Positions 45,610-64,000 of a stretch of DNA of 64,000 bases are shown here, in pieces. The stretch lies in sequence record OQ626344. One strand, written 5' to 3'. A model generated the notes under the pieces. That model was given only the letters and a program-made list of their open reading frames with translations, was not told the origin of the DNA and searched no databases. The position numbers and the translations under genes are program-made. Origin of the DNA: Escherichia phage S127 BCL3. Position 1 is the stretch's first letter; each line of letters begins with the position of its first letter.

Positions 45610-45643
45610 AGCAGACAAAAAGAAAGGGGCCTTTAAGCCCCTT
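45610..45643 (-). terminator. rho-independent terminator (minus strand)
   Basis: AAGGGGC-ttaaag-GCCCCTT followed on minus strand by TCTTTTTGTCT. Confidence 0.55.
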
Positions 45644-45661
45644 GATAATTCAGTTAAGAAA

Positions 45662-46081
45662 TTATAATGATTCGTATATTTCAAAAATCCGATTTGCCAG
45701 GTCGTTACGGTAGCGGAATTTTTCCTCACGTTTGATCATCAGATCTTTAAAGCCATATTCTTTAAGCACTTCATTAACTTTATGGCGGCATACCTTCATA
45801 TTATCTTGAGCGTCACCAATAAACTTGTTGCTGTGGTGCATTGCTTTAATTTCTTCTTCCAGGACCAGGGCAACTACCCGGACCGGATCAAGCTGGTAGG
45901 CGGTAACATCGATGCGGCATTGTAGACGGCTTTTAACGTCTGCCACCGGATATACTGCAACCTCTTCCCCGTCAACATTGACAATAATTAGTTTACCATC
46001 GATTTCGAATCCTTTCGCCGCCGGACCGTGACAAAAAGCGTTATCAAAGCTATATGCCGGATTATCAGATTTAATGTTCAT
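45662..46081 (-). CDS. hypothetical protein
   Basis: 139 aa; AAGAGGT RBS. Confidence 0.5.
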   Translation of the reverse strand: MNIKSDNPAYSFDNAFCHGPAAKGFEIDGKLIIVNVDGEEVAVYPVADVKSRLQCRIDVTAYQLDPVRVVALVLEEEIKAMHHSNKFIGDAQDNMKVCRHKVNEVLKEYGFKDLMIKREEKFRYRNDLANRIFEIYESL

Positions 46082-46224
46082 GGTGTTTTTACCTCTTAGT
46101 TAATTTTCTTACAACTTCCCTTCAAAAAGAATATAGCAAAACTGCCGATCCCTGTCAACAAGGGATAGCATAATTTTTATGTGATCAAGGGGCTTTATCG
46201 CCCCTGACCATGTAACTTGTTGTA

Positions 46225-46488
46225 TTATTTGTTGCTCATCCAGTTTTCCCAAGCTGCCTGATAATCTGCCTCACTACGGCGGATCTCTTCTTGTTCTTCA
46301 AGCCGGATCTCTTCTTCCAGGTACCCCAAGATATCGGCTTTTTTGGTCTGGCGTAACATCCAATCGTCTTTTTTGCGAGTAAAGATCTTGTACGCTTTCT
46401 CGCAAACTTCTTTTTTGCTACCTTTTTGGACTTCAAGAATTCTGTAAGCCATGTACTGAACTAGTTTGAGCTGGTCAAGACGTTTCAT
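46225..46488 (-). CDS. hypothetical protein
   Basis: Start MKRLDQLKLV with AGAGGAAAAC RBS; 87 aa. Confidence 0.45.
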   Translation of the reverse strand: MKRLDQLKLVQYMAYRILEVQKGSKKEVCEKAYKIFTRKKDDWMLRQTKKADILGYLEEEIRLEEQEEIRRSEADYQAAWENWMSNK

Positions 46489-46549
46489 GATGTTTTCCTC
46501 TTTATGTGGTCCTGGTTTAGTGGGCCTTTTGGCCCGTGTCATTATCTTA

Positions 46550-46822
46550 TTACTTACGGCGGCAGAATTCAAGCGTTTTTAATTGATAATCTTCCTCAGC
46601 CTGGAGTACAACCGCCTCGATCATTTCGTTGGCATTGTTGAAGCCATACCCTTTAGCGAACTCGTCCGCACCACCTTCGTGATCATGTTCTGCGTTCATC
46701 GCTTCCACGAAATGGAATTCAAGATTATTGAGATAAGGGCTTGATGTTCCGTCCTCTTTTTCAATGAGATCCCAAATAGTATTAAAACGTGATTCGACTT
46801 CTTGGTTAATCCAGCTTAACAT
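46550..46822 (-). CDS. hypothetical acidic protein
   Basis: 90 aa; GAGAGGAAAAC RBS. Confidence 0.5.
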   Translation of the reverse strand: MLSWINQEVESRFNTIWDLIEKEDGTSSPYLNNLEFHFVEAMNAEHDHEGGADEFAKGYGFNNANEMIEAVVLQAEEDYQLKTLEFCRRK

Positions 46823-47034
46823 GGCGTTTTCCTCTCTTCTGGTTGTTGTGTTGGCACTTTTGCCCCTTCAAGATAAATGTTACCCCACCGCCTGGCAGGT
46901 GTCAACGGTTTTTATAGTTTTTTATATGACAGGCACCTCCGGTGATTGTCTCCCCCCGTCGCCAGGTGCCTGCCGTGAAATAAGTATAACAAAAAACAGG
47001 ACCATTACAAGCCCTGTTTTATGGTTTATAAAGA

Positions 47035-47226
47035 TTATATTTTTTCGCCTATATAGTCCGGTCGGTTTTTCTCTGTCATACGCTTAAGCAATTCTTGCAT
47101 GTTGCTTATGGCTTGTAGTGTATCCTCTTCAAGGGATGAATCGAGATAATCAGGATCATTCTTCACCTTGCAATGATTATGGTAACGTAGTACTGCCAGT
47201 ACTTTTTTAACTTCTTCTGCTGTCAT
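47035..47226 (-). CDS. hypothetical protein
   Basis: 63 aa; AGGTGGAATA RBS. Confidence 0.45.
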   Translation of the reverse strand: MTAEEVKKVLAVLRYHNHCKVKNDPDYLDSSLEEDTLQAISNMQELLKRMTEKNRPDYIGEKI

Positions 47227-47234
47227 TATTCCAC

Positions 47235-47369
47235 CTAAAACAATGAGTTAATATATAACATTAGATCGCTGACCACCAGGACAACACTGATCAGCACATA
47301 CCTAACCATAAAGGGAAAGATCGCCAACATTGCCACCACGATCCCCATGGTAATAATTATCTTTCTCAT
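47235..47369 (-). CDS. 44-aa hydrophobic micro-protein
   Basis: MRKIIITMGIVVAMLAIFPFMVRYVLISVVLVVSDLMLYINSLF; ATG 4 nt after upstream stop. Confidence 0.35.
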   Translation of the reverse strand: MRKIIITMGIVVAMLAIFPFMVRYVLISVVLVVSDLMLYINSLF

Positions 47370-47371
47370 GG

Positions 47372-62130: not shown

Positions 62131-62167
62131 TTTAGCATCTCCTTCTGTAAATTACAACAGCTATTTA

Positions 62168-62413
62168 TTAGCCAATTACTTCGAAAGTGCCCCAACTCCC
62201 GTTCAGCAGGCAGGTGATCGGATCACCATCATCGTCAATTATTTCAAAGTTTTCAACATCCAGAATATGGTCATCGAACACAATACTTTCGTCACCACCA
62301 CCAGAAACAACAGTGTATTCCTTACCTTGAGTCAAGTTTTGACACCCTTTGCCACCAAAACCTACTTCAACACAACGTACTTTCTGTCCTGCGCGAGCAA
62401 CTACTTCAGCCAT
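62168..62413 (-). CDS. hypothetical protein
   Basis: 81 aa ORF. Confidence 0.45.
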   Translation of the reverse strand: MAEVVARAGQKVRCVEVGFGGKGCQNLTQGKEYTVVSGGGDESIVFDDHILDVENFEIIDDDGDPITCLLNGSWGTFEVIG

Positions 62414-62430
62414 CTTAAGGTCTCCTGATA

Positions 62431-62751
62431 TTAATCGTCAAGTTCAAAATAGATTTTAACAGCTTCATCAAAGATTGGAATCCCGATGTTGTTGATAAGC
62501 TGCCAAACTACCATATCTTTTCCTGGATCTGGGAGAATGTCAACCTTTCTCCATGCGCTGTATATCCAGTTCGGACCGCCTTCTGCACTAACTGGTAGAT
62601 TTTCACCAGCTTCCTGTAGATACTTATACAGCAAAAGGTATTCTGGATACTCTAGAACACTGTCCTCTGTAGTATACAGCAGTTCACGGTATACTTTCAA
62701 GAATCCTGTTGGGTTGATGTTTTCAGTCTTCATTTGCTGCTTCTCCTGCAT
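62431..62751 (-). CDS. hypothetical protein
   Basis: 106 aa ORF. Confidence 0.45.
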   Translation of the reverse strand: MQEKQQMKTENINPTGFLKVYRELLYTTEDSVLEYPEYLLLYKYLQEAGENLPVSAEGGPNWIYSAWRKVDILPDPGKDMVVWQLINNIGIPIFDEAVKIYFELDD

Positions 62752-63127
62752 TCATCAGATCTGCCATAGCGTCACCAACGAAGAGGACAACCACGTCGTT
62801 GACAGCGTCAGCATCATCTTTATTGATGTTGCTGAATTTGGGGCACACTGCAATGACCATATAGACCCCGTTGCCCAACTGAACAGTGCGTGTAGTGCAC
62901 ATTAGTGTGGTGCTTGTGCCTTCTTTAAAGGCAAATCCTTGCAGACGTTCTTCCAGAGAGTCACCTGTGGATTTCAACAAGGCAAGATCGCCCAATGCGT
63001 AGGTAGTGTCCTCATAGGTCAGTCCAGAGGTCAATGTTGCCTTCCCATCAGAAACTATAATAACCCCATCGGCACCGTCAAGCTCAGAGGCTTCAAAGAT
63101 ATTAATATCCCAAATGTTTTTCATCAC
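62723..63127 (-). CDS. hypothetical acidic protein
   Basis: 134 aa ORF. Confidence 0.45.
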   Translation of the reverse strand: MMKNIWDINIFEASELDGADGVIIVSDGKATLTSGLTYEDTTYALGDLALLKSTGDSLEERLQGFAFKEGTSTTLMCTTRTVQLGNGVYMVIAVCPKFSNINKDDADAVNDVVVLFVGDAMADLMNAGEAANED

Positions 63128-63444
63128 GCCTCCTCGTCATCTAATGAGTTGAAGATTTCACCGAAGTATTCTAAGACTTCCAGCTCACGGGTGGTGCAGA
63201 AAACACAGTCCCCGTTGTCATCTTCGATAACGGCCTCTTTACCAAGAACATCCACTTCAAATTCGTCGTTTAACAGAACGGAACCTGTGTAAACTTTATC
63301 TGCCGTGCAGTCCCGAAAAGCAGAGTCCTTCTCCAAGTAGTCTGGCTTAACCTTGGCTTTAATTCGTTGATATTGTTTGGTCATTGCTGTGGTCCCCTTT
63401 CGTTTTGATAGGGCCATTATATTAGGCCCTATCGCTATTGTCAA
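63124..63444 (-). CDS. hypothetical Cys-containing protein, paralogue of 63448-63702
   Basis: KPDYLEKDSAFRDCTADKVY / IEDDNGDCVFCTTRELEVL parallels KPECVANDRAFKDCTVGAIY / FKDDEGDSVWCTVNEVVFV. Confidence 0.45.
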   Translation of the reverse strand: MTIAIGPNIMALSKRKGTTAMTKQYQRIKAKVKPDYLEKDSAFRDCTADKVYTGSVLLNDEFEVDVLGKEAVIEDDNGDCVFCTTRELEVLEYFGEIFNSLDDEEA

Positions 63445-63447
63445 GTA

Positions 63448-63702
63448 TTAATGCTCAGGTTTTACAAAAACTACTTCGTTAACAGTGCACCAGACAGAAT
63501 CTCCTTCATCATCTTTAAAGGTAAGACACTGGGCTGAGTTTTCCAACTCATCGAGCTCTTCTTGTGATAAATAGGTCCCTTCTTCCAGAAGGGCTTTTAC
63601 CAGGGGATTCTCACAAAACTCTGCTTCATAAATTGCACCGACTGTGCAATCTTTAAAAGCTCGGTCATTTGCAACGCATTCTGGCTTCAAAGTAATTTTC
63701 AT
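63448..63702 (-). CDS. hypothetical Cys-containing protein, paralogue of 63124-63444
   Basis: 84 aa; see paralogue. Confidence 0.45.
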   Translation of the reverse strand: MKITLKPECVANDRAFKDCTVGAIYEAEFCENPLVKALLEEGTYLSQEELDELENSAQCLTFKDDEGDSVWCTVNEVVFVKPEH

Positions 63703-63777
63703 CTTGGCGGTCTCCTTAACTATTTAAAATCAACGCTCTGTCTGTGTGGGGTATCTTACATCTACCCCAACTTGTTG

Positions 63778-63975
63778 TCAACGACTATTTTCAATCATCC
63801 ACCAAGGATCGAGATAAGTTTGTTGACTTTTTGCCCACTGGCAAACTTCATTGTACATCTGGATCTCTTTGTCCGTCAGTTCACGAATAGGCTCATCTAT
63901 ACCCTCATTTTTGTGGTAATCCCAGTCGGCATCGATTTCCCACAACCATGACTTACGATCTTCACGTTTACGCAC
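63778..63975 (-). CDS. hypothetical protein
   Basis: 65 aa ORF. Confidence 0.4.
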   Translation of the reverse strand: MRKREDRKSWLWEIDADWDYHKNEGIDEPIRELTDKEIQMYNEVCQWAKSQQTYLDPWWMIENSR

Positions 63976-64000
63976 ACAGAAGTCCCCAGGACGGCCTGCC

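Follow-up and report, generated by a model that had tools for sequence, protein, structure and literature searches.

Repeated promoter and stem-loop cassettes resembling PeSL in the small-ORF block of an rV5-like coliphage

The window analysed here is a 64,000-nucleotide stretch of Escherichia phage S127 BCL3 (OQ626344), a Vequintavirus (rV5-like) coliphage with about 91% identity to many phages in GenBank, and it contains a minus-strand array of small ORFs that extends past the window end (Table 1). Our curated list holds 53 minus-strand ORFs (45662 to 63975), and 41-63 ORFs are annotated in the same block of relatives, which agrees with the about 50 small genes of the original prediction, although the size range of 34-207 aa given there is too narrow at both ends, the longest ORF (60494-61720) encoding 408 aa. 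Strong ribosome binding sites had also been claimed, and a Shine-Dalgarno (SD) core of at least 4 nt was indeed found no more than 20 nt upstream of 46 of the 53 ORFs. Nearly all ORFs of the block are without known function: among the 20 largest, Pfam matches were limited to one Macro domain and one DUF, and for ten of these 20 the PHROGs families are of unknown function, save that of the Macro ORF, which is labelled phosphatase.

Table 1. Position and composition of the small-ORF array and of its promoters, hairpins and terminators (fold z, folding energy relative to shuffled sequences)
Feature	Position	Strand	Composition	ATG	Fold z	Remarks
Small-ORF array	45623..64000	-	about 53 ORFs, 33-408 aa, median 84 aa, about 83% coding			
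Consensus promoter	63407..63444	-	TTGACA, 17 nt, TATAAT; 9-bp hairpin GATAGGGCC / GGCCCTATC, loop = -10			hairpin 63407-63433; compensatory GGGCC/GGCCC to GGACC/GGTCC in three relatives
Intrinsic terminator	60457..60478	-	hairpin, ATTTTTGT			annotated terminator in EdH4 and Gotham
Cassette	55014..55070	-	TTGACA, 16 nt, TAAACT, 10 nt, GGCGGGAA-TGT-TTCCCGCC (55014-55032), A/C-rich leader, SD	54994	-4.48	-14.6 kcal/mol; hairpin conserved in relatives, one stem replacement
63-nt cassette, copy 1	54530..54592	-	T-rich tract, hairpin GATGGCC-TTGACTCCAG-GGCCATC enclosing -35, 18-nt spacing, TAAACT			
Cassette	54337..54390	-	TTGACA, 16 nt, TATACT, 13 nt, GGGAA-AAC-TTCCC	54311	-1.18	hairpin weak alone
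63-nt cassette, copy 2	53910..53972	-				within-block repeat, reference copy
63-nt cassette, copy 3	53579..53641	-	hairpin kept as GGTGGTCC...GGGCCATC			62% identical
Terminator-like GC hairpin	52994..53013	.	minus strand: hairpin, TTTTTATTTC			plus strand also called
Gene cassette	52575..52856	-	79-aa ORF			absent from five relatives; both junctions at TTGACAT -35 boxes
Cassette	52208..52264	-	TTGACA, 16 nt, TATAAT, 10 nt, GGCGGGAA-AAC-TTCCCGCC (52208-52226)	52179	-4.78	-35 within upstream ORF; paralogous to 54337-54390 (80% over 54 nt)
Cassette	51490..51547	-	TTGCAA, 16 nt, TATATT, 10 nt, GGGGCGAG-ATGA-CTTGCCCC (51490-51509)	51465	-4.14	hairpin replaced in relatives
Terminator-like hairpin	51053..51075	-	weak T-rich tail			
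Intrinsic terminator	50282..50302	-	GGCCCCC...GGGGGCC, TAACTTTTTAATTTTTTT			
Cassette	50200..50252	-	TTGCAA, 16 nt, GATAAT, 10 nt, GGGGAG-ACA-CTCCTC	50165	-1.94	one G-U pair; CTCCCC or other loops in relatives
63-nt cassette, copy 4	49904..49966	-				within-block repeat
Terminator-like hairpin	49145..49172	-	hairpin, TTATTTTGG			
Weaker-promoter cassette	49038..49089	-	TTGCAT, 16 nt, GATAAT, 11 nt, GGGGG-CGG-CCCCC	49005		energy indistinguishable from shuffles; promoter paralogous to 50224-50252; relatives: GGAGGT-GAT-GCCTCC (compensated pair, G-C to A-T)
Intergenic GC hairpin	48697..48713	-	GGGGCC-GAAAA-GGCCCC			no U-tract, no recognisable sigma70 promoter
Cassette	48375..48424	-	TTGACA, 16 nt, TAGTAT, 10 nt, GGGG-CAAG-CCCC (weak)	48349	-1.05	5-bp GGGGC-AACAA-GCCCC in most relatives
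Strong intergenic hairpin	48100..48123	-	AACAAAGCATAA, hairpin			-17 kcal/mol; no U-tract
Intergenic hairpin	47685..47702	-	AACAAAGCATAA, hairpin			exact start of homology to a Phapecoctavirus
Terminator-like hairpin	46993..47020	-	hairpin, T-run			352-354 nt insertion here in relatives
Cassette	46853..46905	-	TTGACA, 17 nt, TAACAT, 10 nt, GGCA-AAAG-TGCC (weak)	46822	-0.56	relatives: GGGCA-AAAG-TGCCC
-10 and hairpin	46522..46546	-	GATAAT, 5 nt, GGGCC-AAAA-GGCCC	46488		-35 not clear
Intergenic hairpin	46182..46210	-				no U-tract
Block-closing terminator	45623..45643	-	AAGGGGC...GCCCCTT, TCTTTTTG			

Promoter-like sites are enriched in the block (70 versus 41 ± 7.1 in shuffles), as are terminator-like sites (28 versus 16 ± 4.1). 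Since the sigma70 promoters on the gene strand are near-consensus and have A-tract, UP-like elements, "early region" is a reasonable label for the block, and it fits the published annotation of rV5 and Certrevirus, in which such promoters in the short-ORF block were assigned to a "likely early gene region" (PMC3606486, PMC7344957). This much of the originally proposed early region stands, and we infer its timing from the promoters; a literature search found no transcriptome for the rV5-like phage group.

The observation of a block in which promoters are repeatedly followed by a 5' hairpin is partly confirmed and largely real. The -35 and -10 hexamers cited for it are present, and its four example hairpins were found (55014-55032, 52208-52226, 51490-51509 and 54337-54349), but a promoter-like site (at least 9/12 matches, 15-95 nt upstream) precedes only 20 of the 53 ORFs, and a hairpin starts 8-13 nt past the -10 in only six of these 20 promoters, the distance being exactly 10 nt in five cases (binomial P = 6e-5 with the block-wide and 5e-4 with the intergenic base rate). 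By folding energy, three of the hairpins stand clearly apart from random sequence (z -4.5, -4.8 and -4.1; matched by 0/200 shuffles), one is borderline (z -1.9), and four equal shuffles (z -1.2 to +0.05), including the example at 54340, which is present with an energy no better than that of shuffles; these four are supported by their position and by stronger versions in relatives. Moreover, all but three of the 23 hairpins that reach a dG of -12 or below are intergenic, though intergenic sequence makes up 18% of the block, and the leader from the -10 to the ATG measures 47-59 nt in hairpin units versus 17-41 nt where no downstream hairpin is present.

Many other promoters of the block have instead a palindrome that surrounds the -35 or spans the -10, a feature missing from the original description; apart from the one with compensatory exchanges in Table 1, the hairpins across the -10 are poorly conserved (four promoters). 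The block also contains internal repeats: one 63-nt family occurs four times, one 54-nt sequence forms a pair, and an SD-ATG region is shared as well. Indels of gene size have their boundaries at -35 boxes or hairpins, with junctions away from a promoter or hairpin in two of four gene indels. Hairpins 46182-46210 and 45623-45643 flank a gene cassette missing from EdH4 and Gotham, at whose junction EdH4 has a chimeric hairpin, and the points where homology to Stephanstirmvirinae sets in are the SD, the hairpin, the -10 or a position immediately 5' of the -35. In addition, EdH4 has a Phapecoctavirus-type cassette.

BLAST located the cassette at 1-5 copies per genome in 144 phage records. In relatives, the hairpin stays 9-10 nt past the -10 despite loop changes and stem replacements, the latter including GGCGGTTGA-TAC-TCAGCCGCC, GGGGGCAA-GACGT-TTGCCCCC (in place of 51490-51509) and GGAGGT-GAT-GCCTCC, and across three genera most cassettes have it starting 9-11 nt past the -10. 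The phi92-like and Phapecoctavirus loci are far more regular, with the same module at 56-62% of strong gene-strand promoters. That the register is fixed could be due to a common ancestry of the cassette copies instead of selection; fixed registers are found within families of the T4-type phage phi1, too. The hairpins might be passengers of repeated, recombination-prone cassettes with no effect on expression, palindromes, selfish or neutral, that duplication and gene conversion have spread, for which the paralogy of cassette copies, the several weak or decayed hairpins in the window and the disrupted stems in some relatives would also speak. We consider this quite improbable, as replacement stems of different sequence still pair at the same position, the -35/-10 spacers have diverged and the hairpin region has not, and the architecture is maintained in two phage subfamilies.

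Among unique cassettes, the 10-nt stretch that follows the -10 holds, together with the 5' arm, about 1.0 bit per position versus 0.5 in the -35/-10 spacer. This roughly twofold conservation, the many copies per genome, suggestive of a regulon, and a 19-bp perfect palindrome over +4 to +22, which would be a classical operator position, are consistent with a site for a trans-acting RNA-binding protein or a DNA-binding repressor of early promoters. The candidate factors would be a phage or host antiterminator, a translational regulator, a nuclease, or a repressor shutting early promoters together. Such a site is nevertheless unlikely: stem sequences diverge widely between cassettes with pairing kept, loops are variable (TGT, AAC, ACA, TAG, TGG), the hairpin module matches no Rfam family, and no candidate regulator was identified among the ORFs compared with Pfam and PHROGs. 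A symmetric test of G-U against A-C pairs (7 versus 3, P = 0.34) did not show selection on the sense RNA over a DNA palindrome. The lambdoid nut and HK022 put sites likewise involve a hairpin in the RNA, close to where early transcripts of the host polymerase begin, with terminators downstream, but the cassettes have no boxA-like motif or conserved loop, their stems (5-10 bp) and loops (3-5 nt) are variable in sequence, and nearly every promoter has its own site, instead of a single one for each operon.

Of the systems known so far, the nearest is that of the PeSL (promoter-early stem-loop) cassettes of the T4-type phages phi1/RB49, T4/PST and KVP40/nt-1 (Arbiol 2010, PMC2839356; Comeau 2014, PMC4122927), the published definition of which (PMC2839356) is matched feature by feature: repeated intergenic cassettes among small orphan genes; an AT-rich tract, near-consensus sigma70 promoter, G-run/C-run stem-loop, SD and ATG; a stem-loop that, depending on the subclass, surrounds the -35, spans the -10 or follows it; and indels or replacements between close relatives that end at cassettes, with one crossover within a stem-loop. 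We lean, with some reserve, towards the interpretation that the block is an early, highly plastic orphan-gene region built of PeSL counterparts, in which the stem-loop would serve RNA punctuation and stability and the repeated cassettes module exchange; its basis is the architecture, enrichment, conservation and breakpoint association observed here. The cassettes, in the proposed order A-tract upstream element, near-consensus host sigma70 promoter, GC-rich stem-loop, A/C-rich unstructured leader, SD and ATG, would then be the rV5/phi92-group version of PeSL, although the Vequintavirinae and Stephanstirmvirinae concerned are unrelated to Straboviridae. The phi1 stem-loops lie inside the promoter (in a direct scan, at -25/-24 or -16/-14 as counted from the -10 end, with only one at +9), whereas those of the main family, and even more so of the phi92-like phages, lie about 10 nt past the -10. 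Because of this position, the main-family stem-loop would be transcribed from its own promoter, starting at about +4, and no T-rich sequence follows it. Activity as terminators and the formation of mini-circles have been shown for PeSL and are hypothetical for the present cassettes.

For T4-type PeSL, a role of the stem-loops as terminators or attenuators against transcription from upstream cassettes was proposed, one of them having matched rrnB T1 in its reduction of lacZ expression (PMC2839356), and the phi1 spacer stem-loop precedes a T/A-rich -10. Like Rho-independent terminators, the hairpins studied here are short, GC-rich and intergenic, and at least one of them, the equivalent of 55014-55032, is labelled terminator in a related record, that of EdH4. 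However, the sequence 3' of the hairpins after the -10 is A/C-rich with no gene-strand U-tract, which argues that these are not terminators. The intrinsic terminators expected from the original prediction do exist separately, as seven minus-strand intergenic hairpins each followed by a T-run. Besides, an efficient terminator downstream of its own promoter would abort the cassette's own transcripts as well, and we therefore give a terminator function of the cassette hairpins little probability.

Judged by the hairpin position, protection of the cassette's own early mRNA from 5'-end-dependent decay (RppH, then RNase E) is plausible, and the originally offered interpretation is in this respect partly supported; as an account of the hairpins we regard it as possible, yet doubtful. 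The ompA, papA and T7 gene 10 leaders similarly combine a GC-rich hairpin near the 5' end of a highly expressed mRNA with an unstructured stretch that leads to a strong SD, the T7 leaders differing as products of T7 RNA polymerase at late promoters. The stabilising hairpins of ompA and T7 gene 10 begin at or 1-2 nt from the 5' end. In the cassettes, unlike in these stem-loops, a tail of 3-4 unpaired nt is predicted, since the canonical start of transcription is 7-8 nt past the -10. The Srd protein of T4 is a stimulator of RNase E. Protection would be in line with a Srd homologue described in the rV5 paper, with the hairpin register just past the expected start, the missing U-tract and the longer leaders of hairpin units, and also with reports that RppH is blocked by a 5'-terminal stem-loop (PMC8833179) and that the T7 gene 10 stem-loop increases mRNA stability (PMC6146998). 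However, 2 unpaired 5' nucleotides are the minimum for RppH and RNase E, which prefer at least 3 (PMC8833179), so that the predicted tail, at or above this preference, should confer little protection by published criteria, which counts against the classical mechanism, and protection by a simple internal stem-loop from scanning RNase E was negligible (PMC11194081). Moreover, stems extend toward the start site no more than by chance (8/39 versus 5.8 ± 1.8 in shuffles, P = 0.16), the hairpin is found in a minority of units in the window, and the hairpins around the -35/-10 and those without a promoter would be left unexplained.

As PeSL counterparts, the stem-loops may rather act as RNA punctuation and stability elements at cassette borders, where the same structure would be 5'-proximal in the cassette's own mRNA and, on read-through RNA from a terminator-less upstream gene, the first stable structure to bar exonucleases from the 3' side. 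REP-type 3' barriers and T7 RNase III-site hairpins are comparable stable intercistronic hairpins; by this likeness, cassette hairpins could halt 3' exonucleases and govern the relative stability of upstream segments, although they have no sequence relation to these elements and processing is putative here. The repeated cassettes might in addition supply homology for the gain, loss and exchange of modules among rV5-like phages and with phi92-like phages. The original prediction had overlooked that the units are repeated, exchangeable cassettes of an already described kind.

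Matches to the stretch 45610-64000 were found in 260 GenBank phage records, of which 35 cover at least 80% of it, and the best full-length matches (about 91% identical) are Escherichia phages of the rV5-like genus Vequintavirus, e.g., WalterGehring, inoa, nom, EdH4, and JLBYU08. Relatives were taken from these records, an IMG/VR search with the 207-aa protein encoded at 51556-52179 (minus strand) having given two close loci only. The relatives are annotated here with 41-63 "hypothetical proteins" on a single strand and, past the window end, with a few more small genes and a DNA polymerase. 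Our own gene list comprises 53 minus-strand ORFs from 63975 to 45662, which encode 33-408 aa (median 84 aa, second largest 207 aa), carry a Shine-Dalgarno (SD) core of at least 4 nt in 46 cases and account for about 83% of the block. The original prediction of some fifty small genes therefore agrees in number and in small size, but its range of 34-207 aa was too narrow. Only two of the 20 largest ORFs passed Pfam thresholds (Macro domain, 58782-59240; DUF7238, 62431-62733), and ten of these 20 were assigned to PHROGs families of unknown function, except that the family of the Macro ORF is labelled phosphatase. The 207-aa protein is named "YeeU-like antitoxin" in one GenBank record; it has no Pfam match and falls into a PHROG family without known function, and proteins distantly related to it (25-30% identity) are encoded on unrelated IMG/VR contigs.

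A consensus scan of the block returned 70 promoter-like and 28 terminator-like sites, where shuffles gave 41 ± 7.1 and 16 ± 4.1, respectively, and nearly all promoter-like sites with 10-12 of 12 matches lie on the minus strand. The TTGACA/TAnnnT sites are on the gene strand, the cassette consensus shows an A-tract ahead of the -35, and 20 of the 53 ORFs have a promoter-like site (at least 9 of 12 matches) 15-95 nt upstream. The intrinsic terminators expected between units were recovered as seven minus-strand intergenic GC hairpins followed by T-runs (see the table), several of which carry terminator annotation in EdH4 and Gotham.

Stem-loop elements of the minus-strand block, with positions in the window
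Element	Position	Next ATG	Composition or folding energy
Hairpin after -10	55014-55032	54994	z -4.5
Hairpin after -10	54337-54349		no different from shuffles
Hairpin after -10	52208-52226	52179	z -4.8
Hairpin after -10	51490-51509	51465	z -4.1
Hairpin after -10	50200-50214	50165	z -1.9
Hairpin after -10	49038-49050	49005	no different from shuffles
Hairpin after -10	48375-48386		no different from shuffles
Hairpin after -10	46853-46866		no different from shuffles
63-nt element, four copies	54530-54592, 53910-53972, 53579-53641, 49904-49966		T-rich tract, GATGGCC...GGCCATC with -35 (TTGACT) as loop, TAAACT -10
Consensus promoter with hairpin	63407-63444		9-bp hairpin, -10 as loop
Intrinsic terminators, seven	60457-60478, 52994-53013, 51053-51075, 50282-50302, 49145-49172, 46993-47020, 45623-45643		

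All four examples that had been cited for a promoter followed closely by a GC hairpin were found. Six of the 20 promoters are followed by a hairpin whose start lies 8-13 nt behind the -10; in five of the six the distance is exactly 10 nt, and these five all have 16-nt spacers. By chance, a hairpin would start within this 6-nt window in 3.7% of cases over the whole block and in 5.4% of cases in intergenic DNA (P = 6e-5 and 5e-4, respectively). The predicted architecture is thus statistically real, but it belongs to a minority of units only. Elsewhere in the window, 135 promoter-like sites are accompanied by only eight weak downstream hairpins, which are unlike the G-run/C-run stems of the cassettes and start 7-14 nt after the -10, none of them at exactly 10 nt. 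Folding energies are far below those of shuffles for three of the hairpins after the -10 and borderline for a fourth. Of the strong hairpins (dG ≤ -12 kcal/mol), 20 of 23 are intergenic, though intergenic DNA makes up 18% of the block. Rfam returned no family, its two sub-threshold matches lying far under the gathering scores.

The hairpins after the -10 have no U-tract on the transcribed strand, in which they differ from intrinsic terminators, and their tails (AACACAAAGG, ACTAATAAAG, ACACAAAACA, and alike) continue as A/C-rich leaders into the SD. The scan did mark two of them (55014-55032 and 52208-52226) as terminator-like on the plus strand, yet the T-richness there comes from the complement of the A-rich start region, and termination of antisense transcription was rejected, as a T-run is absent from both strands of the phi92-type copies. 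Because the hairpins lack a U-tract and come after the promoter of their unit, and because true terminators are found elsewhere in the block, a role as terminator or attenuator is quite improbable.

Other arrangements exist as well: the stem-loop lies after the -10 in 6-9 cassettes, around the -35 in four, and across the -10 in one well conserved and four weak cases. The weaker palindromes across the -10 (63747-63769, ~58760, ~55800, and ~52550) were not accepted as established elements, since they are poorly conserved in relatives. Two further strong hairpins on the minus strand (48100-48135 and 47685-47715), without U-tract, both follow a common motif, AACAAAGCATAA, without a recognisable -35, and may belong to another class of promoter or act as processing signals.

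Comparison with eight Vequintavirus relatives revealed that the hairpins after the -10 are kept at 9-10 nt from it in spite of loop changes (TGT, ACA, and AACA). Upstream of 54994 the stem is replaced in MiataMamis by another pairing sequence (GGCGGTTGA-TAC-TCAGCCGCC), the stem-loop before 51465 is GGGGGCAA-GACGT-TTGCCCCC in most relatives, upstream of 49005 GGGGG/CCCCC in the window corresponds to GGAGGT/GCCTCC in relatives, and upstream of 50165 a G-U pair in the window is G-C in the others; single stem mismatches occur in some relatives. The hairpin across the -10 at 63407-63433 displays a clean two-sided change from GGGCC/GGCCC to GGACC/GGTCC in three relatives. These comparisons were made site by site, as a MAFFT alignment of 48 cassette hairpins placed unequal stems out of register and gave no pair counts. 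A trans-acting factor that recognises the hairpins has, in our estimate, a small chance of being the explanation; the operator of a single DNA-binding repressor in particular is unlikely, since stem sequences vary among cassettes with pairing kept. A symmetric count of internal G-U versus A-C pairs (7 vs 3, P = 0.34) does not distinguish a sense RNA structure from a DNA palindrome, and a comparison of sense and antisense folding energies (24 vs 3) was discarded because the hairpins had been pre-selected with sense-strand G-U pairs allowed.

Paralogy is seen among the cassettes, with 80% identity between 52211-52264 and 54337-54390 over 54 nt and 76% identity between 49061-49089 and 50224-50252, and four genes have an SD-ATG region in common. 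Among unique cassettes, nevertheless, the 10 nt after the -10 together with the 5' arm carry about 1.0 bit per position versus about 0.5 bit in the -35/-10 spacer, so that the conservation is not simply due to recent copying.

We infer the early timing of the region, the start sites, and all RNA effects discussed here. It had been proposed that the 5' hairpins may protect early transcripts from 5'-end-dependent decay. The position of the hairpins suits this proposal, and precedents exist, as RppH is blocked by a 5'-terminal stem-loop (PMC8833179) and the stem-loop of T7 gene 10 was reported to raise mRNA stability (PMC6146998); moreover, where no hairpin follows the promoter, leaders are about 20 nt shorter, which would suit a hairpin added on at the 5' end. 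However, if transcription starts 7-8 nt behind the -10, with a purine that comes after a pyrimidine, 3-4 nt are predicted to stay unpaired, whereas RppH and RNase E need at least two unpaired 5' nucleotides and prefer at least three, from which we took one to two unpaired nucleotides as the upper limit for a stabilising 5'-terminal stem-loop (PMC8833179). A simple internal stem-loop gave negligible protection against scanning by RNase E (PMC11194081). Besides, in a test for selected pairing of the nucleotides transcribed first, the stems reached the start site no more often than by chance (not significant). The interpretation offered originally has partial support; strict 5' protection is doubtful. 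We lean slightly towards a composite role, in which a hairpin at the cassette border would serve for punctuation and stability of both neighbouring messages and the cassette would double as a recombination junction. The upstream genes lack their own terminator, so that their transcripts must pass the next promoter and hairpin, and for such a read-through message the hairpin would be the first stable 3' structure.

Regarding exchange, two of four gene indels among relatives end at -35 boxes or hairpins, and the other two at gene borders without a motif. The 79-aa gene at 52575-52856 is missing in five relatives, with TTGACAT -35 boxes at both junctions, and the gene at 45643-46186 is missing in EdH4 and Gotham, with junctions within two similar hairpins and a chimeric hairpin in EdH4. 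Segments shared with the Stephanstirmvirinae (phi92-like and Phapecoctavirus phages) are gene-sized and start at an SD (48361), at a hairpin (47701), at a -10, or just upstream of a -35; in one case (55084-54998) a 90-nt cassette alone is in common. In the Vequintavirus EdH4, two of the promoter-hairpin cassettes are of the Stephanstirmvirinae type, the first with the hairpin GCGGGAATACTTCCCGC and the second beginning TAGACTGTATTTCGTAGGGCGGGGCAATAAGGCAACGCCC, and the latter cassette is nearly identical to phi92-like and Phapecoctavirus copies. On sequence grounds, this points to an exchange of cassette-plus-gene modules between the subfamilies.

Promoter-early stem-loop cassettes (PeSLs) are repeated intergenic cassettes in hyperplastic orphan-gene regions of T4-type phages; each is made up of an AT-rich tract and a sigma70-consensus promoter, with a G-run/C-run stem-loop that takes any of five positions and, at the 3' end, an SD and ATG, and they are associated with indels and stem-loop-internal crossovers (PMC2839356, PMC4122927). 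The cassettes of the block likewise form a repeated intergenic motif in a plastic region of small orphan ORFs (the 63-nt family, the 54-nt pair, and the common SD-ATG region), combine a sigma70-type promoter on the gene strand and an upstream A-tract with a stable GC-rich stem-loop in or beside the promoter, end in the SD and start codon of the downstream gene, and bound indels or replacements among close relatives (two of the gene indels, and breakpoints with phi92-like phages inside cassettes). In contrast to PeSLs, they reside in a Vequintavirus. The same script, run on 30 kb of the T4-type phage phi1, located seven stem-loops with starts 25/24 nt upstream of the -10 end, six with starts 16/14 nt upstream of it, and only one with its start beyond it. 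The phi1 spacer stem-loop followed by a T/A-rich -10 fits the terminator activity reported for one PeSL, whereas the hairpins in the window stand after the -10 and are followed by A/C-rich tails. Given the other lineage, registers, and sequences, the element is PeSL-like and not a member of the PeSL family by descent: judged by its sequence, it is a PeSL kind of cassette in an unrelated lineage, with the stem-loop at a different position that is predicted to be transcribed. The PeSL kind itself is already known; what is new here is its variant in a new lineage. Lambdoid nut sites, with a boxA and a conserved-loop boxB, are different, as only about 3 nt precede the hairpin and the loops are variable. 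For rV5, promoters and terminators only were reported (PMC3606486), and a sigma70-like promoter concentrated among short ORFs was described for Certrevirus (PMC7344957). Within the collection of papers covered, our literature search found none describing the hairpin module in rV5-like or phi92-like phages, nor transcriptomes or hairpin descriptions for Vequintavirus, phi92, or Phapecoctavirus.

The module is much more regular in one phi92-like Justusliebigvirus and two Phapecoctavirus loci, where it reads A-tract, TTGACA, 16-17 nt, TAnnnT, about 10 nt gTAyCACrTA, GGGCGGGAAATGGTTTCCCGCC or GGGCGGCAATrGTGCCGCTC, A-rich leader, and SD. It stands behind 56-62% of strong gene-strand promoters in these Stephanstirmvirinae loci, whereas the share across the seven full-length Vequintavirus loci is 24-43%. 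A single 95-nt cassette used as BLAST query matched 144 records, Serratia, Klebsiella, Enterobacter, and Pectobacterium phages included, with 1-5 detectable copies each. The recurrence of the roughly 10-nt gTAyCACrTA and of the GGGCGG... hairpin at about +4 across Vequintavirinae and Stephanstirmvirinae might indicate a dedicated cis-acting RNA signal beyond a generic stability hairpin, which we consider rather improbable; the early transcripts would then carry, as a whole set, a mark read by a particular factor of phage or host, with a role such as processive antitermination, selective translation, or timed destruction or shut-off.

If confirmed, rV5-like and phi92-like coliphages, two large, common and widely isolated groups with members in the BASEL collection, use the T4-type modular design for fast-evolving early genes, with the lineage-specific difference that the stem-loop is made part of the mRNA leader. 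A stem-loop inside promoter DNA in one lineage and at the RNA 5' end in the other would be a natural experiment on its role. The cassettes also define putative early transcription units where genes are annotated only as hypothetical, explain the mislabelling of some hairpins as terminators, and mark junctions for the exchange of accessory early genes, which may include anti-defence genes, between phage subfamilies. As compact promoter-leader units they are possible parts for expression design.

Several minor observations were made. An insertion of 638 nt is present in MiataMamis and "Campylobacter phage D#" at ~60497-60500, at the 3' end of the 408-aa gene and adjoining the terminator 60457-60478, and one related record has a homing endonuclease annotated within this region. 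MG065647, MG065650, MG065656, and MG065689 ("UNVERIFIED: Campylobacter phage ...") are rV5-like or phi92-like genomes near coliphages, and their host label looks doubtful. Position 1 of the Gotham record, which annotates a 459-bp terminal repeat there, aligns to window position 44108, and EdH4 numbering likewise begins just past that end of the block (44108-45649); the window thus spans the physical genome end as treated by those records, and transcription of the gene block points towards this end, stopping about 1.5 kb short. The 338 nt at 56347-56684 are free of ORFs and contain imperfect direct repeats that are 47-55 nt long and spaced 65-74 nt apart (also at 55923-56061) with the plus-strand core GAAAACGAAAAACAGATCGAGTACT, and more short repeat families lie close by; this may be the "non-coding" box on the map of the rV5 paper and a candidate origin, iteron array, or regulatory region. 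Finally, a minus-strand hairpin at 62117-62145 (GAAGGAGA-TGCTAAAATGGTG-TCTCCTTT, -14.8 kcal/mol) engages the SD of the gene that begins at 62130 in base pairing, with the ATG of this gene in the hairpin loop, and may serve in translational control or coupling.
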